DNA from: Acetatifactor sp.
Lineage (GTDB): Bacteria; Bacillota; Clostridia; Lachnospirales; Lachnospiraceae
Length of the DNA stretch: 64,000 bases
Assembly (NCBI GenBank): GCA_024695935.1
Contig: JAILHH010000001.1
Span: 990-64,989, forward strand
Reading direction: 5' to 3'
The position numbers were made by a program, and so were the translations under genes. Positions within the stretch are counted from its first letter, which is position 1; each line of letters opens with the position of its first letter. The notes beneath the pieces were generated by a model, which was not told the origin of the DNA, searched no databases, and was given only the letters and a program-made list of their open reading frames with translations. Positions 1,128-63,190 of this stretch are shown piece after piece.

Positions 1128-3962
1128 ATGTCATCACAGGAAGATTATCTTGATAGTTTATTAAAAGACATGACGGAAAATGTTCCGGAAAATTCAGCAG
1201 AGTCCAGATTGACGGAGTCTGGTTTTTATAATGCCAATAATACTGAAAATGAAGAAAAATCTGATGTTGAGGACTTAAGTTCAGAAGCCGAGGTCTTGAA
1301 TTCCGATGTTGATGCTGTAAATACTATTTCTGAGGATTTGAATTCAGATACTGAGAATTTTGATGAGGGGGATCTTAATTTTGAAGATTTGGATTCCCTG
1401 CTTGAGGATGTGTCTCTCGACAGTTCTTTGGCAGAAACTGTGGAAGCAGAGGTTCCTGAAGTGGATGTTTCGGAATCAGTTGAAACTCCTAATATAGATG
1501 AAGGTGCCACGGAAGATTTTGATGCAAATGCAATTGAAAATATCGAAGAAAGCGTCGATGAAGACATTAATACAACTACAGATGAAATAAAATTCGGTGA
1601 GGGTGAATTTACAATTACCGACGAGGAACTTTATGGTGAATCGTCAGATCCTGAAGCTCAAAGTGAACCTGATTTTATGCCTGTTACCGAAGAAGAAACA
1701 GTTGCAGAAGATTTACCCATAGAAGATACAGTTGTAGATGAGTCTCCTGTTGAGGAGATGCCTTTAGAAGAGGCAGATACTGAGTTATCTTTAACGGAGG
1801 AAATTCCTGCAGAGGAAGATATTCCTGCAGGTGCTTTAGCTTCTGCAGATTTAGAAGTTATTGATGATACAGATGTTTTTGCTGAGTCAGACATTCCTAT
1901 AGAGTCAGAAATCCCTGTAGAATCAGAAATCCCTGTAGATACAGAGATCCCCAATGAGACAGAGATGCCTTTAGAAGAGGCAGATACTGAGTTATCTTTG
2001 ACAGAGGAGATACCCGCTGAGGAGGATATTTTTGCAGAGCCTGAAACTCCTGATGAAGCCGAAATTCCTGCCCGGGCGGGCGTGGTGGCAGAGGAAATCG
2101 GACCTGAAGTTATAGATGGTCCGGGCGACCTTTTAAATGAAACAGGCGATGTGGATGCAGATGCAGATATTGTAGCTCCCACAGTGGAAGACACCGCAAA
2201 TATGTCTGCGGAAGATATTGAGAAAATGCTTCAGAACGCTGAGGCTTTAGGAAGTGAACCCGAAACTGCAGCTGAACCTGATCTCATGGATATGCTCGCT
2301 GCAGAAGACGGCGAGGACTTTAAGGATATTGAGGAAAGCCTTAAAAAAGATGAAAACAACGAGGCTATAAGTGCAGATATAGAGGCCATGCTCTCAAGTG
2401 ACAGCGATGAAAAAGAAATAGACCTGGATGACCTTGATAATATAGATGATGTACTGAATGATTCTGTGGCCGGCACCGAAAACGAAGCCGTTGAATCTGA
2501 GGAATCTGAGGAAGAAAGCCCCAAAAAGAAAAAGTCTCTTTTCGGAGGTCGAAAGGGCCGTAAGGATAAAAAGAATAAGGGTAAGGACAAAGAAGCTGAA
2601 GCCGATGAAGAGGAAATGACAGACGAACCGTCAGGTCCTTCTGAGACGGAGCTTGAATTTGCTGCCATGCAGGAAGAAAAATCTGCCGAGGCTTTGGAGG
2701 AAGTCCCTGAGGAAACCGAAGAAAAAATTGTAGATCTTACAAATCCCGTCATCGACCTTGAGCCCGACGCAGGCAAAGAGGATGAGCTTACTCCCATTGA
2801 TGATATGGATGATATAGATTCACTTCTTGCTTCTGCCAGCAAAACCGTGGATGCAAACGGTGAAGTGGTTGATGATCTTATGCCTTTGGAGGAGGATTTC
2901 CCCATTCTGGATGAAGGGGAAGACCTTGTTCCTCTGGATAGTGAGATGAGTGATGCACCAGCGAAGGATGCAGGTGAGCCAAAGGAAGAGGAAAAGAAAG
3001 GCTTCTTTGCGAAGCTTTTCAGCAAACTGACAGAGTCTGAGGATGATGATAAGCCCGAGGCCGAGCAGATCCAGCTTTCTGATGAAAATAAAGAGATCCT
3101 GGAGGAGATGGACAAAGACAAAAAGGGCAAGAAGGATAAAAAGAAAAAAGGCAAGAAGGGTAAGGGCAAGGAAGAAGGTGCAGATGCCGAGGCAACTGAG
3201 GGTGAAGACGGCGAAGAAGCACCAAAGGAAGATAAGAAAAAGAAAAAGGAAAAGAAACCTAAAAAGGAAAAGAAAGAAAAACTTGAGGAAGTCAGTCCCT
3301 ATGCTTCCACAAAGAAACTTTCATTAAAAAAATGCCTTCCCATAATTTTATTTGCAGCAACCATAGGCGGTGTGATCTTGTTTGTGGTAAATGTGGGCGG
3401 AAGTTTTGCCATGAAGAATGCAGCCCATAAGGCATTTTATGAAGAGGACTATGAGACAGTATATCAGAATCTTTACGGTAAGAAACTGAATGAGTCCGAA
3501 GAAGCCATGATGGGTAAGGCCGAGAGTATTTTAAAGATCAAATTCTGGTTAAGAGAATACGAGATGTTTGCTGACAACGGTGAAGAAGCAAAGGCTTTGG
3601 ATAATCTGATCCAGTCTGTTGGCCATTACGGCACTTTATATGACAAGGCGGTTAAGTATAATGCCGCGTCCGAAGTTGCAGAAGTATATTCAAAGTTCAT
3701 TATGATACTTGGTGACAAATATCATCTGACCGAGGATCAGGCCTTTGAGATATATGAGACCAAGAATGATATCGATTATTCCAGAATGATCTATACAATT
3801 ATCCGGGGAGGTCAATATGGTGACTGGGTTGGTCAATACGAGCTTTCGGAGGAAGAGATCCGGGCCATTTACGATGAAGTAAACGGTGGCAGTTCCTCTG
3901 CCGGTGACAAGATCCCCGGAGAAGAAGATATAAAAGAGACAGAATATATACTTGGAGAATAA
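1128..3962 (+). CDS. Large, highly acidic, low-complexity single-pass membrane protein. It has about 720 aa of D/E-rich repeats and two K-rich patches, then one TM helix, then a roughly 210-aa C-terminal globular domain.
   Basis: 944-aa ORF with a strong RBS (cagggggaaagacATG). The composition is dominated by E/D/S/T. TM segment LPIILFAATIGGVILFVVNV lies near residue 720. The C-terminal domain has normal composition. Confidence 0.8.
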   Translation: MSSQEDYLDSLLKDMTENVPENSAESRLTESGFYNANNTENEEKSDVEDLSSEAEVLNSDVDAVNTISEDLNSDTENFDEGDLNFEDLDSLLEDVSLDSSLAETVEAEVPEVDVSESVETPNIDEGATEDFDANAIENIEESVDEDINTTTDEIKFGEGEFTITDEELYGESSDPEAQSEPDFMPVTEEETVAEDLPIEDTVVDESPVEEMPLEEADTELSLTEEIPAEEDIPAGALASADLEVIDDTDVFAESDIPIESEIPVESEIPVDTEIPNETEMPLEEADTELSLTEEIPAEEDIFAEPETPDEAEIPARAGVVAEEIGPEVIDGPGDLLNETGDVDADADIVAPTVEDTANMSAEDIEKMLQNAEALGSEPETAAEPDLMDMLAAEDGEDFKDIEESLKKDENNEAISADIEAMLSSDSDEKEIDLDDLDNIDDVLNDSVAGTENEAVESEESEEESPKKKKSLFGGRKGRKDKKNKGKDKEAEADEEEMTDEPSGPSETELEFAAMQEEKSAEALEEVPEETEEKIVDLTNPVIDLEPDAGKEDELTPIDDMDDIDSLLASASKTVDANGEVVDDLMPLEEDFPILDEGEDLVPLDSEMSDAPAKDAGEPKEEEKKGFFAKLFSKLTESEDDDKPEAEQIQLSDENKEILEEMDKDKKGKKDKKKKGKKGKGKEEGADAEATEGEDGEEAPKEDKKKKKEKKPKKEKKEKLEEVSPYASTKKLSLKKCLPIILFAATIGGVILFVVNVGGSFAMKNAAHKAFYEEDYETVYQNLYGKKLNESEEAMMGKAESILKIKFWLREYEMFADNGEEAKALDNLIQSVGHYGTLYDKAVKYNAASEVAEVYSKFIMILGDKYHLTEDQAFEIYETKNDIDYSRMIYTIIRGGQYGDWVGQYELSEEEIRAIYDEVNGGSSSAGDKIPGEEDIKETEYILGE

Positions 3963-9416: not shown

Positions 9417-9499
9417 GCCGGTGTGTCGGAATGGCAGACGAGGCAGACTCAAAATCTGTTTGTGGCAACACAGTGTGGGTTCAAGTCCCACCACCGGCA
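9417..9499 (+). tRNA. tRNA-Leu (anticodon CAA), class II with a long variable arm; no encoded CCA
   Basis: Acceptor stem GCCGGTG / CACCGGC plus discriminator A. Anticodon loop CTCAAAA (CAA at positions 34-36). Long variable arm. T-loop GGTTCAAGTCC. Confidence 0.85.
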
Positions 9500-30465: not shown

Positions 30466-30640
30466 TAAAATTGTAAACTATGAGAATAGTCGGTATGCTA
30501 TATCCGACCGAACAGACAAATATTGTAAATTAGTCGGTAAAAATTACTTCTCCATTAGAAAAGTAATGGAAAACCACCTGCTAAATGAAGAAAAAGCTTA
30601 GCTTAGTCGGTTTATGAGTACCGACTATACTAAGCTTTTA
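30466..30640. repeat. Cluster of short direct and inverted repeats built on a TAGTCGGTA core (attgtaaa-N-tagtcggta twice, and the hairpin gcttagtcggt/accgactaagc), plus the nested hairpin attacttctccattagaaaagtaat
   Basis: Read directly from the sequence; it lies at the left edge of the AT-rich island. Confidence 0.6.
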
Positions 30641-30765
30641 ATAGTTTTAGTAGGAATAAGGATTCGAAATGCATCATATTAGCTATAACTAAAATGAGTA
30701 ATATATCTATTTGTATGAAATACAATTTTTGTTTGATTTGATAAGGGTATCCTTCACTTATGAAG

Positions 30766-31174: not shown

Positions 31175-31348
31175 AAAACATGCCTCCTTCTCATACCTTG
31201 AAATCTAATTTTAGCCCGAAAATACGTGCAAATCGGTTGTAAAAATGAGACAAAAATGATAACATTAAAAAATAAAGATAGAAGATTTTTATGCAAAGTA
31301 AACAAATTAGTGCTGCAGGTGATTGAAAACAAAAATAGGAGGCATCAT

Positions 31349-32653
31349 ATGGCAATCGTTGAAGTTGTTAAATATAACGGGGCGGCAAATGTTTTTGCCT
31401 GGAAATATCCAAGCGAAGAATTAGGTACTTGGACTCAGCTTATCGTAAATGAATCTCAAGAAGCTGTGTTGTTTAAAGGTGGAAAAGCATTAGATGTATT
31501 TGGAAGTGGAAGACATACTTTAGAGACAAAGAATATTCCCCTATTAAATAAAATAGTAAATCTTCCCTTTGGCGGGAGATCTCCATTTACGGCGGAAGTA
31601 TGGTATGTTAATAAGCTTTTCAAACTTGATATCAAATGGGGGACAGCATCTCCAATTCAGATCCAAGACCCTAGATATGGAGTATTTGTACCTGTAAGAG
31701 CTAATGGTATGTTTGGAATTCAGATTGATGATTCTAATAAGTTTCTTGTTAAATTAGTAGGCTCTATGCCAGTCTTTGACGAACAAAGCATTATTAAGTA
31801 TTTCAGGGGATTGTATGTTACGAAGGTCAAGGATGCTATTTCTTCATATGTTGTAAAGAAGGGAATAAGCTTACTTGAAATAAATGCTTATATCGATGAA
31901 CTTTCTTCATTTATGAAAGAAAGAATTTGTCCTGAAATGTCAGATTATGGAATTAATTTAGTTAGTTTTTTCGTAAATGAGATAAGCATTCCTGAAGAGG
32001 ATCCTGCGGTAAAGAGATTAAAGGATGCATTAGCTAAGAAAGCTGAAATGAATATTATTGGATATAACTATCAGCAAGAAAGATCGTTTGATACGATGGA
32101 ATCTGCTGTTAAAAATGAAAGTATGGGCGCAGCACCGTTTATGGGAGCTGGAATGGGAATCGGTATGGGTGTTGGCGTCGGCGGTGTAATGGCAGGTTCT
32201 ATGGCAAATCTTGCAGGACAGATGAAGTTTGATGGAAATGATAATATGATTGAATGTCCTAAATGCCATTCGAAAATGGTTAAAGGTCAAAGATTTTGCG
32301 GATCTTGTGGATTTGATGCTCAGCAGGAAGAAACTTCATCCACCACAATAAAAATAATAAAATGTGCAAAGTGTGGAGCAGATAATAAAGGAGCAAAATT
32401 CTGTATGGTGTGTGGGAAAAAATACATTCCCTGCCCTGAATGTGGTGCTGATATGAATGAGGGTGAAACATCATGTGGTATATGTGGACATGAACTTCCT
32501 ATGAAGTGTCCCAGTTGTGGTGCAGATTTGCCTAGAGGTATAAAGTTCTGTCCTGAATGCGGAGCATCTGTGGTTAAGAAATGCCCTAATTGTGGCGTTA
32601 CAATAGAAGGCAATCCTAAATTCTGCCCTGAATGCGGAGAAAGTTTGAGGTGA
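31349..32653 (+). CDS. SPFH/Band-7 (Band_7_1-like) domain protein fused to a Gly/Met-rich linker and five tandem zinc ribbons
   Basis: The N-terminus has the Band_7_1 pattern (KYP...QLIV.ESQEAVLFKGGKA.DVFGSGRHTLETKNIPLL...FGG). The C-terminus has 5x CxxC-x9-10-CxxCG. Start chosen at the ATG after RBS ataggagg. Confidence 0.75.
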   Translation: MAIVEVVKYNGAANVFAWKYPSEELGTWTQLIVNESQEAVLFKGGKALDVFGSGRHTLETKNIPLLNKIVNLPFGGRSPFTAEVWYVNKLFKLDIKWGTASPIQIQDPRYGVFVPVRANGMFGIQIDDSNKFLVKLVGSMPVFDEQSIIKYFRGLYVTKVKDAISSYVVKKGISLLEINAYIDELSSFMKERICPEMSDYGINLVSFFVNEISIPEEDPAVKRLKDALAKKAEMNIIGYNYQQERSFDTMESAVKNESMGAAPFMGAGMGIGMGVGVGGVMAGSMANLAGQMKFDGNDNMIECPKCHSKMVKGQRFCGSCGFDAQQEETSSTTIKIIKCAKCGADNKGAKFCMVCGKKYIPCPECGADMNEGETSCGICGHELPMKCPSCGADLPRGIKFCPECGASVVKKCPNCGVTIEGNPKFCPECGESLR

Positions 32654-32657
32654 TTGA

Positions 32658-33341
32658 ATGAATAGATTAAAAACAGCCACAACAATAGGATGCGTATGTA
32701 TTCTGGCAACTATTATTATTTTTGCACTCTTTCATCCAGTAATACGACTATCAACAATTGTTGCATTTATCTTTATGCTGTATGCAGAGATTGTATTTTT
32801 TGGTGGTTTTCTATTTGTTGAGATCTTGGCAAAAAGAACTTCGGGAATACTTAGTAGAGCTGGAGTAGGTGTGACTATTGCGGGTTATTCTATCGTGGTT
32901 TTTCTGTCATCATTATTGTATTTGTTACATGGAAGCTTCTTTGTTCGACGGTTTCTAATATTACAGATATTCTTCTTTGTTGTAGCGTTTGCTATAGTTG
33001 CTATTTTAGCCTCATTTGCAAATTCTGCAGAGACAAGTGATTGTAAAATTCTGCAAGCTGATGCGATGATAAATAATTTCATAACAGAATTATCATTGAT
33101 AAGAGAAAAAGTAAAAGATAAATCATTAATTGACAAATTAATTGAATCGATTCGCTTTTCGGATTCATCGGTTGTGGTTGATTGTGATATAGAAATTGAA
33201 GAAAAGATTTCACAACTAAAGAAAATTGTGGCGGATGAGCAAATAGAATCCGAAGAGTATAAAAAACTGATTGAAGAGATAGAAATCTTAATAAAAAAGA
33301 GAAATATTCAAACAAAAAATATGAAGCAAGGTGGAGTCTAG
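32658..33341 (+). CDS. Membrane protein with 4 predicted TM helices and a C-terminal coiled-coil-like tail
   Basis: Hydrophobic stretches at residues 8-28, 32-55, 62-90 and 95-120; the C-terminus is charged and repetitive (EE/KK). No recognisable family. Confidence 0.6.
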   Translation: MNRLKTATTIGCVCILATIIIFALFHPVIRLSTIVAFIFMLYAEIVFFGGFLFVEILAKRTSGILSRAGVGVTIAGYSIVVFLSSLLYLLHGSFFVRRFLILQIFFFVVAFAIVAILASFANSAETSDCKILQADAMINNFITELSLIREKVKDKSLIDKLIESIRFSDSSVVVDCDIEIEEKISQLKKIVADEQIESEEYKKLIEEIEILIKKRNIQTKNMKQGGV

Positions 33342-33354
33342 GAGGAGAATGATT

Positions 33355-33984
33355 ATGGAAAAAGTAAAGAAATCGCCGTCATGGGTTGCTATTGTATTAT
33401 GGTTTATTTTCTTTTGGCCGGTAGGTGTTTATTTGCTAATTAAGAAAGTTACAAATGACAAGTCAGCCGCAATGCACAATAGCAAAGTTCTGCTAGGCAT
33501 AGGTATTTTTTTTCTGTTTTGTGCGTTTGTTATGATTACACAGTTGTTTGATTCTTCATCAGATACCAGTTCGACGCTATCTGGAGTTCTGTTTTACGGA
33601 GCAGGTGGAGGCGGGCTTATTTATGCGGCTAAACGTCTAAAAGATACTGGTGAAAGATACAAGAAGTTCATTGATATAGTAATTAATCAGAGGCAGACAA
33701 CGATTGATAATATCGCTTCTCAAATGGGGCTTGGATATGACGAGACCGTTAATGGTTTGCAGAAAATGATTGATAAGGGTTACTTTAATGGGGCTTATAT
33801 AGATCAGGGAAATCATGAAATTGTGTTGCTTAATATAAGTAATAACCAACCTATGGTTAATGATCATATTACAAATGTGAATGCTCAGCAGAGGACAGTT
33901 AAGTGTCCTAATTGTGGTGGAAATAATATTATTTACGTAGGGCAAGTTGCAGAGTGCGAGTTCTGCGGATCACCGATAGAATAA
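33355..33984 (+). CDS. Small membrane protein with 3 TM helices, a Gly-rich segment, a possible helix-turn-helix-like region and a C-terminal zinc ribbon (CPNCGG...CEFCG)
   Basis: Start at the ATG after RBS aggagg. TM segments WVAIVLWFIFFWPVGVYLLI, VLLGIGIFFLFCAFVMI and GVLFYGAGGGGLIYAA. Confidence 0.6.
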   Translation: MEKVKKSPSWVAIVLWFIFFWPVGVYLLIKKVTNDKSAAMHNSKVLLGIGIFFLFCAFVMITQLFDSSSDTSSTLSGVLFYGAGGGGLIYAAKRLKDTGERYKKFIDIVINQRQTTIDNIASQMGLGYDETVNGLQKMIDKGYFNGAYIDQGNHEIVLLNISNNQPMVNDHITNVNAQQRTVKCPNCGGNNIIYVGQVAECEFCGSPIE

Positions 33985-34089: not shown

Positions 34090-35484
34090 ATGACTAATCT
34101 GCAACTAGAAATAGATGAGGGTATACTTCTTGAAAGTGATTCTTCATCATGGCTATCAAATGAGGATTATATACTTGAAAGTCTTGTTCTTACTAACAAG
34201 CATCTTTATTGTGTCTGTGAAAAAAGTAATGGTATTTTTAAAGGATATTCACATGAGACTATTACGTTTCTAATATCAGAAATTAAGATTATAAATGGAC
34301 AAGCATTGGTAAAACAAATAAAGATAGATGGCAGATGGTGCCTTCAAATTCAATTTAATCAAAGCATTGAATATTTTGAATTTTATGAAGTGCCAAAGAA
34401 AATTATTCCTACTTGGGTTTCTGAAATAAATAAGGTCCTGGGAATTGAGGAAATCAGTGAGCCTACAAATGGAAAAGAAACAAAATCCCAAAAGAGCGTA
34501 AGAGTTAGTAGTTTTTTTGTAAGCAAGAATCTTAAACAAGCAAATGAGACTGCAAAAGAGGCTGATTTGCTTGGTGAATCACAAGCCATCCAAGAAGTTA
34601 AACAAGATATAAAGCAAGAGATTAAGGAAGAGATAAAGCAAGAACTTAAGTTAGAAGAAAAAAGCGAAGATAATTTATTATATTGTATTGAATGTGGAAG
34701 TAAACTGTGCGAAGGAACTAACTATTGTCCGGAATGTGGTCGAATGTTAGTTCCTGGAAAAAAACATATTTTTTCAGATAAAGGGAATGCGGTGACATGT
34801 CTGGAAGAATCTGTCGACGTTTCAAGTGAACAGAAGCAACAGAGTGATGCTGAACGCTCACAATCAAATAAACAAGAAGAATATGTTGGAAAGGTTTTCA
34901 AATGCCCAAATTGTGGAGATATAATTGATTCGTTTACTCTGATTTGTCCATCCTGCGGCGTCGAGTTAAGAGGGATTGAAGCTTCAAAAACTTTGCATTC
35001 ATTTATGCTAGAGTTAAAGAATTCAGCATCAGACAGAGAAAAGGCAGCTATCATCGGTAATTTCCCCGTTCCAAATACAAAAGAGGATATTTATGAGTTT
35101 TTTGTAATGGCATCATCGAGTGTACTCGGGGAGAACTCTGAAGTGTTATTTGATGCATGGAATGTTAAAATGAACCAGTGTTATCAGAAAGCAAATTTAT
35201 CGATAAATGACGAGGCTGAGCTTGATAAGATACAGAGGATTTATGATAGTACATGTAAGCAGCTTGAGAAAAAAAGATCTAAACTCAGCGTTAATAAGAT
35301 CATATCAGTAATAAAAAAAGTTTTTTCCATTTTCCCTAATCCTATAGTTGCAGTAGTTTCGGTTTTTTTGGTAATTTTTGAAATTGAAAGACTGATACGC
35401 TTGGAATTCAATGGAACTGACATAATTTTTTGCGCTTTGATTTTAGGGCTTACATATAAGATATCATCCAAAAAACGAAAATGA
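34090..35484 (+). CDS. Bacterial PH-like (GRAM/bPH-like) N-terminal domain protein with a KQEIKEEIK repeat linker, two zinc ribbons and a C-terminal two-TM anchor
   Basis: The N-terminal 100 aa look like alternating beta strands with a hydrophobic core, typical of bPH. CIECG...CPECG and CPNCG...CPSCG. C-terminal hydrophobic helices IVAVVSVFLVIF and IIFCALILGL. Confidence 0.6.
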   Translation: MTNLQLEIDEGILLESDSSSWLSNEDYILESLVLTNKHLYCVCEKSNGIFKGYSHETITFLISEIKIINGQALVKQIKIDGRWCLQIQFNQSIEYFEFYEVPKKIIPTWVSEINKVLGIEEISEPTNGKETKSQKSVRVSSFFVSKNLKQANETAKEADLLGESQAIQEVKQDIKQEIKEEIKQELKLEEKSEDNLLYCIECGSKLCEGTNYCPECGRMLVPGKKHIFSDKGNAVTCLEESVDVSSEQKQQSDAERSQSNKQEEYVGKVFKCPNCGDIIDSFTLICPSCGVELRGIEASKTLHSFMLELKNSASDREKAAIIGNFPVPNTKEDIYEFFVMASSSVLGENSEVLFDAWNVKMNQCYQKANLSINDEAELDKIQRIYDSTCKQLEKKRSKLSVNKIISVIKKVFSIFPNPIVAVVSVFLVIFEIERLIRLEFNGTDIIFCALILGLTYKISSKKRK

Positions 35485-35501
35485 TTTGTGTACTTAATGT
35501 G

Positions 35502-35538
35502 AAAGGGTGTCAAGAAAAAATACTTGACACCCTTTTCT
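35502..35538 (+). terminator. Rho-independent terminator closing the accessory cassette
   Basis: aaagggtgtcaag-aaaaaatac-ttgacaccctttt. Confidence 0.8.
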
Positions 35539-38497: not shown

Positions 38498-39751
38498 ATG
38501 AAATTTTCCGTGCTTACCCTGTTCCCGCAAATGATCGAGGATGTTGTAAACACCAGCATCATCGGAAGGGCTAAAAAGAACAATTTAATAGATGTATCGG
38601 CTGTAAATATCAGGGATTTTTCCGATGACAGACATGGAAAGGTTGATGATTATACTTATGGCGGCGGAGCAGGTATGCTTATGCAGGCTGAACCTGTGTT
38701 TAAGGCCCATGGTTTTGCAACAGAGGGTAAAAAGGTCCGCACGGTTTACGTTACACCTCAGGGAAAGCCTTTTAACCAGGAAATGGCAAAGGATTTTGCC
38801 GGTGAAGATGAACTGGTCATAATATGCGGCCATTATGAGGGTATAGATGAGAGAGTTTTAGAGGAAGTTGTAACGGATTATGTCTCTGTGGGAGATTTTG
38901 TCTTAACCGGAGGAGAACTTGCTGCTCTTATCATAATTGATGCCACATCCAGATTTATAAACGGAGTTTTAAACAATGATGCATCCAGTGAGACAGAGTC
39001 CTTTCATCTGGATCTCTTAGAATATCCACAATATACCAGGCCGGAAGAGTGGCGCGGAAAGAGGGTTCCGGAAGTGCTCTTAACCGGAAATCATAAGGAC
39101 GTGGAAGCCTGGAGACTTGAAAAGTCAATAGAAAAGACAAAGGCTGTACGCCCGGATCTTTATCTTAATTATGAAAACAGACAAAATATCATAAACAAGC
39201 TTTCAAAGAAAAAGAGAAATAATATCTTTGCCATTGAATCCCTTAAAAGCGGCAGAGGGACGGTTTTTTATGAGGATGAAAATTTCCTTTTGATAAGAGA
39301 AACCGAAGGCGTATTTTTGGAAGTTACATATACAAATACAGAAAAAATGGCTGATGCAGAAAGTATTTATGAAGGCCTGCTTGGTAATCTCTCAGGGAAA
39401 ATACGCTTTTTATATACAACGGATCCTTTATTGAAGACAGTTTTCGAAAAGAAACAGTTATTTAGCGGATTTAAAGCTTTTGACATGTTTTGTTATACAG
39501 TCAGAGAAAATCTGAAATGTAAGACGAATTCCTATGACAGGGATATTTATGATCTTAATGAGATCATGGGAATAACAGTAAAAAAAGAAATGAGCAAGGG
39601 TGACGAGGCAGGCCTGTCATTTCTTATAAACAGCTTAAAGACATCAGGAACTCCTTTTGTCTTTTGCACAGGCGAAAATAACCGTATTATCCTGGAAAAA
39701 CTCGGTCTTTACAGAGCGGACAGAGAGATATTTGTGTTTACAAATAGATAG
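38498..39751 (+). CDS. trmD: tRNA (guanine37-N1)-methyltransferase TrmD with an unusual C-terminal extension of about 170 aa
   Basis: The N-terminal 235 aa are canonical TrmD (MKFSVLTLFPQM..., GGGAGM, ICGHYEGIDERV). Residues after about 240 have no TrmD counterpart. Confidence 0.85.
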   Translation: MKFSVLTLFPQMIEDVVNTSIIGRAKKNNLIDVSAVNIRDFSDDRHGKVDDYTYGGGAGMLMQAEPVFKAHGFATEGKKVRTVYVTPQGKPFNQEMAKDFAGEDELVIICGHYEGIDERVLEEVVTDYVSVGDFVLTGGELAALIIIDATSRFINGVLNNDASSETESFHLDLLEYPQYTRPEEWRGKRVPEVLLTGNHKDVEAWRLEKSIEKTKAVRPDLYLNYENRQNIINKLSKKKRNNIFAIESLKSGRGTVFYEDENFLLIRETEGVFLEVTYTNTEKMADAESIYEGLLGNLSGKIRFLYTTDPLLKTVFEKKQLFSGFKAFDMFCYTVRENLKCKTNSYDRDIYDLNEIMGITVKKEMSKGDEAGLSFLINSLKTSGTPFVFCTGENNRIILEKLGLYRADREIFVFTNR

Positions 39752-62924: not shown

Positions 62925-63190
62925 AAACATGAATTTAGCGTTGAAGAGAAGAAGTAACCGGAATAATTGTACTGACAGAGAGTTGCCGGCAGGTGAGAGG
63001 CACGAGGAAAATCCGGAGAAATACATCTTGGAGCTGCAGAGGTGAACTTACAGTAGTCTTTGCCGGTGGGCACCGTTAACGGCCGGGGTATTGATTGATA
63101 CCTGTTAAGGCAGTATTTGTGAGAATACTGTGAAAAAAGGTGGTAACACGAGACAGATGCTCGTCCTTTAAGGGACGGGCTTTTTTTGTT
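62925..63190 (+). ncRNA. T-box riboswitch leader (probable tyrosine specifier) with a terminator/antiterminator
   Basis: Conserved T-box sequence AAAGGTGGTAACACGAG (about 63136-63152), then terminator cgtcc...ggacg plus ttttttt (63159-63190). A GAGA/AGAGA stem-I element lies at about 62975. The downstream gene is tyrS, and a UAC-containing loop (GAAAUACAU) lies near 63025. Confidence 0.75.

Follow-up and report, generated by a model that had tools for sequence, protein, structure and literature searches.

The stretch of DNA analysed here (the window) covers 64,000 nucleotides of the core chromosome of a Lachnospiraceae bacterium, Acetatifactor sp. (assembly GCA_024695935.1, contig JAILHH010000001.1, positions 990 to 64,989, forward strand). 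One of its genes, here termed gene A, encodes a protein that joins an SPFH domain to five tandem zinc ribbons. Within the SPFH superfamily the protein is unremarkable, and falls in the Band_7_1 (PF13421) branch (presumably COG4260), which also holds Bacillus subtilis YdjI, or SamI. Its architecture is not new: the YdjI-type layout is standard for a large, annotated family. Judged from the sequences of its relatives, five ribbons is the top of a family range of zero to five, and a conserved subfamily trait rather than a one-off. By analogy with YdjI/SamI, we lean with modest confidence towards a function as a cytoplasmic, oligomeric SPFH scaffold, which would be brought to the membrane by the products of two adjacent genes, B and C, with the ribbons serving as a multivalent adaptor.

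Gene A runs from an ATG codon at 31349 to a stop codon ending at 32653, and thereby specifies 434 residues. Its product is NCBI MCR5254316.1, named "SPFH domain-containing protein [Acetatifactor sp.]". An earlier, sequence-only reading of the window had picked out the same frame, and the start, ribosome-binding site, stop and NCBI length all agree that it is real. The start codon is assigned from three observations: the AGGAGG element 6 nt upstream; the homologues, all of which begin MAIVEVVKYNG; and the 434-residue NCBI record. A longer frame in the list of open reading frames, from a GTG codon at 31226 to 32653, was rejected because the homologues and the NCBI record begin MAIVEV instead.

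The amino-terminal domain is recognized as SPFH both by sequence and by predicted fold. Pfam assigns residues 22-217 to Band_7_1 (E=2e-46; 158.7 bits against a cutoff of 24), as the sequence-only reading had proposed for the first 250 or so residues, and also finds Band_7 (PF01145; E=5.6e-8; 33.5 bits against a cutoff of 23.6). The domain is highly conserved across the five-ribbon subfamily, represented by an alignment (A1) of 31 orthologues with 64-88% identity. A first AlphaFold2 run with these close orthologues gave a mean pLDDT (predicted local distance difference test score) of only 54.8, and was not used for fold searching. A rerun with YdjI-clade sequences added (alignment A2) raised this to 68.2 and produced a confident SPFH domain, with block means mostly of 70-90 over residues 1-230 and a low-confidence loop at residues 66-78. 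In this model residues 237-297 are disordered, and the ribbons appear as separate small β hairpins with pLDDT of 58-71.

When the model was compared with the Protein Data Bank (PDB) by Foldseek, the leading matches were to human stomatin, HflK/C, prohibitin, flotillin, QmcA and archaeal stomatin cores. These SPFH matches have E values from 2.4e-9 to about 1e-4 (2.4e-9 to 2.7e-7 for the top ten), probability 1.00 and identity of 11-16%, and the first 45 PDB matches are all SPFH domains or the SPFH-like vault shoulder domain. A sequence-profile search of the PDB reached no SPFH structure; only the fold search did so.

The solved SPFH relatives matched by Foldseek all assemble on membranes as rings or cages. 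Like the gene A protein, stomatin, HflK/C, prohibitin, flotillin and QmcA have the SPFH α/β fold followed by helices. However, they possess an amino-terminal transmembrane (TM) or hairpin anchor, and the wall of the cage is made by their long coiled coils, whereas the gene A protein lacks an anchor, has only some 35 helical residues, and ends in a zinc-ribbon tail. By analogy with the solved cages, the two predicted helices that follow its SPFH core are a possible oligomerization region. No 19-residue Kyte-Doolittle window in the protein reaches the TM threshold of 1.6, and its amino terminus is a β-strand. Thus, the TM helix or hairpin usual in the SPFH superfamily is absent, an exception that YdjI shares (PMC8581546).

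The fold match to HflK/C and QmcA, and the name "membrane protease subunit" used by some sources, might be taken to indicate a regulator of a membrane protease, of the HflK/C or stomatin-NfeD type. The name, assigned automatically, is a generic COG label. Moreover, the protein lacks the amino-terminal TM or hairpin, and neither the operon nor any neighbourhood examined contains a gene for FtsH, NfeD or another protease, so this function is very unlikely.

The tail consists, by sequence, of five zinc ribbons, each of which is predicted to bind zinc. A regular-expression scan finds five CxxC-x9/10-CxxC modules, each followed by Gly, and Pfam matches DZR (PF12773; E=1.6e-26, in five stretches), Zn_Ribbon_1 (PF13240; E=2.2e-22) and Zn_ribbon_3 (E=1.5e-13). 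The sequence-only reading was therefore right in its domain calls (a Band_7_1 SPFH domain, a Gly/Met-rich segment, and five tandem CxxC-x9/10-CxxCG modules) and in naming PF12773 and PF13240, both of which match above cutoff. It also placed the ribbons correctly at the carboxyl terminus, but gave them 110 residues where they occupy the last 132.

The modules are of the same kind as DZR and Zn_Ribbon_1 ribbons, in which two CxxC knuckles lie 9-10 residues apart and carry CPxCG and KFCxxCG signatures. What is notable is their number in tandem and the fixed spacing of 6-7 residues between ribbons 2, 3, 4 and 5; ribbons 1 and 2 are joined by a linker that varies in alignment A1. Of the 20 ribbon cysteines, 19 never vary across the 31 orthologues, and C393 is Asn in a single sequence (P0113); five modules are present in 116 of the 120 best homologues, one module being degenerate in the remaining 4. 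The array is therefore not a product of chance. The ribbons within gene A are 29-54% identical to one another, and the array is kept in orthologues down to about 45% identity, which suggests that multiplication of the ribbons is old.

Zinc-ribbon arrays also invite the idea of nucleic acid or ribosome binding, through which the protein would hold RNA, DNA or the translation machinery at the membrane. The ribbons give weak PDB profile matches to the archaeal "Zn-ribbon RNA-binding protein involved in translation" (E 0.007-0.03) and a match to a designed zinc-finger array (E=6e-6); the product of gene C has a winged-helix-like region, itself defined by weak matches; and the operon in this genome sits between ftsY and ffh. 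However, the profile matches are at the level of generic CxxC motifs, and the tail is nearly neutral, with 18 Lys or Arg residues against 15 Asp or Glu over 135 residues. Besides Cys, Gly, Phe and Pro, few tail positions are invariant or at least 90% conserved (K350, K358, Y359, D368, K399, E403, K424 and E431), and the conservation therefore gives no sign of an extended surface such as a basic patch. The location near ftsY and ffh is not conserved in the other genomes examined. Together, these features make nucleic acid or ribosome binding improbable.

Between the helices and the ribbons lies the Gly/Met-rich segment, which is present as the sequence-only reading had described it (residues 259-289). 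Seven alternate glycines within it (G266, G268, G270, G272, G274, G276 and G278) are invariant in the 31 orthologues, so that the stretch is constrained and not a mere floppy linker. It also contains the hydropathy peak of the whole protein, a 19-residue mean of 1.47 at residue 264. The AlphaFold2 pLDDT of the segment is below 50. The conserved alternation of Gly with hydrophobic residues indicates that this "linker" may be more than a flexible tether.

One alternative to a recruited scaffold starts from these features. The segment would be a membrane-dipping anchor that binds the bilayer autonomously, and the 20 cysteines with their zinc would form a redox or zinc switch, controlling the scaffold under oxidants or metal stress. 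The seven invariant glycines alternating with hydrophobic residues would suit such an element, as would the 31 uncharged residues with their hydropathy close to the TM threshold, the near-complete invariance of the ribbon cysteines (one position replaced in one sequence), and the hosts, which are strictly anaerobic Clostridia. However, invariant cysteines are expected of any structural zinc ribbon, the segment is predicted to be disordered, and no thiol-redox or metal genes lie in the operon. Moreover, the equivalent segment of YdjI is less hydrophobic, and YdjI needs YdjG and YdjH for membrane localization (PMC8581546). An autonomous anchor with a cysteine switch is accordingly an unlikely, although not a negligible, explanation.

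Proteins with the gene A architecture are numerous. A word-indexed search of 5.8 billion proteins (cutoff E<=1e-5) returned 5,112 matches, of which the best 120 have 422-447 residues, 64-88% identity, query coverage of 97-100%, and a Pfam set identical to that of gene A. The source databases use "SPFH domain-containing protein" among other names for the matches, and some describe close homologues with "contains C-terminal Zn-ribbon domain". All named host organisms are Clostridia: Lachnospiraceae, Ruminococcus gauvreauii, Inconstantimicrobium, Anaerocolumna, Anaerosporobacter, and Clostridium spp. The view that this architecture had not been described does not survive these results, since the matches number in the thousands, the best 120 have the same Pfam set, and the window protein is already named in NCBI. 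A known function is attached only to the one-ribbon Bacillus homologue.

The wider family shows how variable the tail can be. When the SPFH part alone was used in an exhaustive HMMER search, 3,501 clusters (50% identity) matched at E<=1e-3, and 598 at E<=1e-30. Among representatives no shorter than 300 residues, ribbons were counted in the best 128: 53 have none, 7 have one, 33 have two, 24 have three, 7 have four, and 4 have five. Of the 53 without ribbons, at least 11 bear SHOCT-like tails, and GYF-like and NlpC/P60-like tails are also present among the relatives read. Previous work noted that SHOCT is most often paired with PF13421 (PMC3581485). Other Band_7_1 proteins thus have in common with gene A the SPFH core and, usually, a NEG...GAGMGxGMG segment, whereas their carboxyl terminus is a variable string of small modules (SHOCT, one to four ribbons, or GYF-like tails). 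The gene A subfamily differs in two respects: its tail is fixed at five ribbons in 116 of the 120 closest homologues; and a C-type neighbour, within the sample examined, goes with this form.

YdjI is the member of the branch with which comparison is most direct. The reference sequences were a Bacillus tequilensis gene, located by a published primer sequence, and a full B. subtilis-type operon, located through a YdjI homologue. YdjI (323 residues) is laid out in the same order as gene A: the SPFH domain (Band_7_1, E=4.6e-42); then a Met/Gly-rich low-complexity stretch, ...GKMSGGGAASDMAGMMMGMNMANQMMNQ...; and finally one carboxyl-terminal ribbon, CxxC-x9-CxxCG, which Pfam detects below threshold (Zn_ribbon_3, 23 bits against a cutoff of 27; and Zn_Ribbon_1). 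BLASTP aligns gene A with YdjI at 24% identity over 259 residues (E=4e-20), and pairs ribbon 5 with the YdjI ribbon at 55% identity over 22 residues. The layout of SPFH domain plus carboxyl-terminal ribbon in YdjI has been described by Scholz et al. 2021 (PMC8581546) and by Ravi et al. 2024 (PMC11237479).

These comparisons dispose of the proposal, made in the sequence-only reading, that gene A is a new architecture in which a YdjI-like SPFH protein became fused to a YdjG-like ribbon protein and the ribbon was multiplied five-fold. YdjG does have two zinc ribbons, and the window contains no separate YdjG. However, the YdjG ribbons are amino-terminal, of the Zn_Ribbon_TF type, and have longer spacing; ribbon 5 of gene A aligns best with the ribbon that YdjI itself carries after its Met/Gly-rich segment; and the five-ribbon form occurs in thousands of proteins and is already annotated. 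Fusion has scarcely any likelihood left. Since YdjI already bears a ribbon, the real difference between the two proteins is the number of ribbons.

The two proteins have in common their Pfam family, the order of their parts, and the lack of TM segments. Their operons also resemble each other, in that each encodes integral membrane proteins alongside, one of them with zinc ribbons. The differences are as follows: YdjI has one ribbon and gene A has five; the SPFH gene is last in the pspA-ydjGHI (pspA-samGHI) operon but first in the gene A operon; pspA is present in the former and absent from the latter; and the Gly/Met segment is more hydrophobic in gene A, with a strict Gly-x alternation. The encoded partners differ as well. 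For YdjI these are YdjG, with two amino-terminal ribbons, an NTF2-like domain and a TM segment, and YdjH, with a TPM domain. For gene A they are B, with four TM helices and a coiled coil, and C, with TM segments, the winged-helix-like region and a carboxyl-terminal ribbon.

Genes B and C follow gene A closely: B starts 4 nt past the stop codon of A, and C starts 13 nt past that of B (a GTG codon at 33331 is a possible alternative start for C). Neither matches a Pfam model. The arrangement is conserved. In all five orthologue loci taken from assemblies, Pfam-less genes of the B and C families lie on the same strand, 5-15 nt after A. Their B proteins have about 228 residues and are 32-45% identical to that of the window. 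The C proteins fall into two paralogous types: C1, of about 150-190 residues; and C2, of about 210-220 residues and 41-46% identical to the window protein. The flanking genes (holA, thrS, ABC transporter, Fic) differ every time, and the operon occupies a different chromosomal site in each genome examined.

A sample of 33 metagenome loci, each with full-length A and at least 1.5 kb downstream, gives the same picture. Directly downstream of A there is a C-type gene in 27, a B-type gene in 18, and both in 16. B homologues directly 3' of A were also found in loci L004, L007 and L009. A C-type gene accompanies 23 of 24 five-ribbon forms but none of the four forms with one or two ribbons; with three-ribbon forms B is present, and C occurs in only one of three.

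The C family has no Pfam model. In its alignment (A3) the four cysteines of the carboxyl-terminal ribbon are invariant, in the pattern CxxCG...N...CE[YF]CGS. The middle of the protein gives only sub-threshold matches to the winged-helix domains PCI, DDRGK and HTH_36, so that a winged-helix assignment is tentative. A profile search collected 121 C-family proteins, the named ones nearly all "hypothetical protein"; the exceptions are two automatic JGI labels (PCI-domain proteasome component; DeoR/GlpR regulator). The profile also has distant matches (E 1e-10 to 1e-4) to proteins that carry PF10112.

Two sets of loci contain interrupted or truncated members of the operon. In L009 (9049-9600), and likewise in L010 and L019 (Clostridium sp. 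CP076620.1), the C1-type gene is interrupted, just before the ribbon, by an in-frame stop (...NPDDI, stop, YVSITCPSCGG...), and is either a pseudogene or a split gene. In L072 (6095-6493), as in L071 and L073-L075, the A gene is a truncated open reading frame of 132 residues followed by an intact C1-type gene, which looks like decay of the SPFH gene.

The scaffold model draws its function from work on the Bacillus protein. YdjI/SamI is soluble, and reaches the membrane only with YdjG plus YdjH; it binds YdjH and PspA, and is required for the formation of PspA foci (PMC8581546). According to a 2026 preprint, SamI assembles into higher oligomers and keeps signalling by the SamG-SamH membrane complex in check. 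By analogy, the SPFH domain and helices of the gene A protein would assemble into a higher-order ring or cage beneath the membrane. This assembly would be recruited to the membrane proteins B, C and, in this genome, D (the product of a further downstream gene), and would organize or restrain them. As rigid zinc beads strung on a flexible Gly/Met tether, the five ribbons could offer several docking points per subunit for these partners, and the tail perhaps docks the ribbon-bearing C proteins. The A-B-C module would then probably serve in surveillance of membrane or envelope stress, without an operon-encoded PspA.

Several observations weigh against this model. Function is known from experiment only for the one-ribbon Bacillus homologue. 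BLAST of B and C against YdjG and YdjH gave only CxxC-level matches, without homology, so that recruitment is carried over by analogy only. For PspA, YdjG and YdjH, BLAST also gave no homologue in the window, and none of the three genes was called beside the orthologues in loci L001-L010. The link of YdjI to PspA may therefore not apply to gene A; the pspA-ydjG-ydjH operon is a mark of the Bacillus operon and not of the protein family. The modelled ribbon tail has low confidence. The invariant Gly pattern and near-TM hydrophobicity of the Gly/Met segment mean that the protein might bind membranes by itself. Finally, the tracking of ribbon number with the presence of a C neighbour is only suggestive, given that the statistics ignore kinship and that low-ribbon loci are few.

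A bolder version of the scaffold model can be formulated. A-B-C would be an undescribed, PspA-independent membrane-surveillance module, widespread in Clostridia, in which the five-ribbon tail docks onto the ribbon-bearing, winged-helix-like C family. The C proteins could be membrane-tethered regulators held by the scaffold, much as SamI restrains SamGH, and the ribbon expansion would have co-evolved with C. We consider this a long shot.

Table 1. Features of the gene A operon and its immediate surroundings (positions in the window).
Feature	Positions	Strand	Basis
Divergent XRE-family helix-turn-helix (HTH) regulator, 81 residues	30929..31174	-	Pfam HTH_3 E=2.2e-9
Shine-Dalgarno AGGAGG, 6 nt 5' of gene A ATG	31337..31342	+	sequence read directly
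Gene A, SPFH (Band_7_1) protein with five zinc ribbons, 434 residues	31349..32653	+	list of open reading frames, Pfam, NCBI record
SPFH α/β domain, residues 1-236 (Pfam Band_7_1 match at 22-217)	31349..32056	+	Pfam, AlphaFold2, Foldseek
Two predicted helices after SPFH core, residues 219-236 and 242-255, including conserved AEMNIIGY.YQQERSF	32003..32113	+	DSSP on model; conservation
Gly/Met-rich segment GAAPFMGAGMGIGMGVGVGGVMAGSMANLAG, residues 259-289, uncharged, Gly alternating with hydrophobic residue	32123..32215	+	sequence, alignment A1
Zinc ribbon 1, residues 303-320, CPKC-x10-CGSC	32255..32308	+	Pfam, regular-expression scan, alignment
Zinc ribbon 2, residues 339-355, CAKC-x9-CMVC	32363..32413	+	Pfam, regular-expression scan, alignment
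Zinc ribbon 3, residues 362-379, CPEC-x10-CGIC	32432..32485	+	Pfam, regular-expression scan, alignment
Zinc ribbon 4, residues 387-404, CPSC-x10-CPEC	32507..32560	+	Pfam, regular-expression scan, alignment
Zinc ribbon 5, residues 412-429, CPNC-x10-CPEC, the most YdjI-like ribbon	32582..32635	+	Pfam, regular-expression scan, BLASTP
Gene B, 227 residues, four predicted TM helices, carboxyl-terminal coiled-coil-like region, conserved ...KRxxxVxxxKxGG[IV] end	32658..33341	+	no Pfam match
Gene C (C2 type), 209 residues as NCBI-annotated, two or three amino-terminal TM helices, winged-helix-like middle, carboxyl-terminal CxxC-x13-CxxCGS ribbon	33355..33984	+	no Pfam match
Gene D, 464 residues, NCBI "zinc ribbon domain-containing protein"	34090..35484	+	
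Terminator-like hairpin, 14 bp stem and T run	35501..35536	+	terminator scan

Gene D begins 105 nt after gene C and is possibly the last gene of the A-B-C transcript. Between gene A and ylxM, the terminator scan found one strong site, at 35501-35536, the other being a weak six-pair stem (35126-35141) inside gene D. The D protein comprises an amino-terminal globular domain of about 120 residues, a K/E-rich linker, two zinc ribbons, and one or two carboxyl-terminal TM segments; Pfam recognizes nothing in it except generic ribbons. In the loci examined, a gene D homologue lies beside no other A gene, nor is the XRE regulator conserved upstream of A in the orthologue neighbourhoods examined.

The gene order in the window is rnc, smc, ftsY, a YitT/DUF2179 gene, the divergent XRE gene, A, B, C, D, ylxM, ffh, rpsP, a KH-domain gene, rimM and trmD. 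In B. subtilis ftsY and ylxM-ffh are adjacent, and the block at about 30-36 kb therefore looks inserted. The GC fraction of this block, which contains the XRE gene and A-D, is 0.35-0.36, as against 0.41-0.44 around it. Two origins or functions for it were tried and rejected. As an anti-phage defence system, A-D gave no match in PADLOC, and the XRE regulator gave generic HTH matches only. As for phage origin, PHROGs returned only generic ribbon and HTH matches, and 2.9 million viral contigs held one related locus. No RNA element was found in the A-D locus by Rfam at gathering thresholds; the sole Rfam matches in the window are a T-box leader (62932-63171, 120 bits) and a tRNA gene (9417-9499).

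Other features of the window lie apart from gene A. The 8-mer TAGTCGGT occurs four times, where 0.68 occurrences are expected by chance, and all four fall in a 140-nt part (30487-30627) of the non-coding DNA that separates the YitT-like gene from the XRE gene. This cluster includes a 35-nt imperfect hairpin at 30577-30654, which has no Rfam match. The TrmD open reading frame (38498-39751) specifies 417 residues; the usual TrmD is about 170 residues shorter and lacks this carboxyl-terminal extension. Finally, 1128-3962 encodes a 944-residue protein of low complexity that is extremely acidic and rich in repeats; it has a lysine-rich stretch, one TM segment near residue 720, and a carboxyl-terminal domain of about 200 residues.

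For annotation, YdjI-type proteins are best read as an SPFH domain followed by zinc ribbons whose number varies from zero to five. What sets the clostridial form apart from that of B. subtilis is its five ribbons and the membrane-protein genes alongside, without PspA. The Bacillus member of the family, SamI, is under active study, and the clostridial form adds a lead: it travels with two uncharacterized, Pfam-less membrane families. B and C are thus candidate partners for those who study SamI or SPFH scaffolds in gut anaerobes. Moreover, the natural series of ribbon numbers provides a way to ask what the ribbons do.

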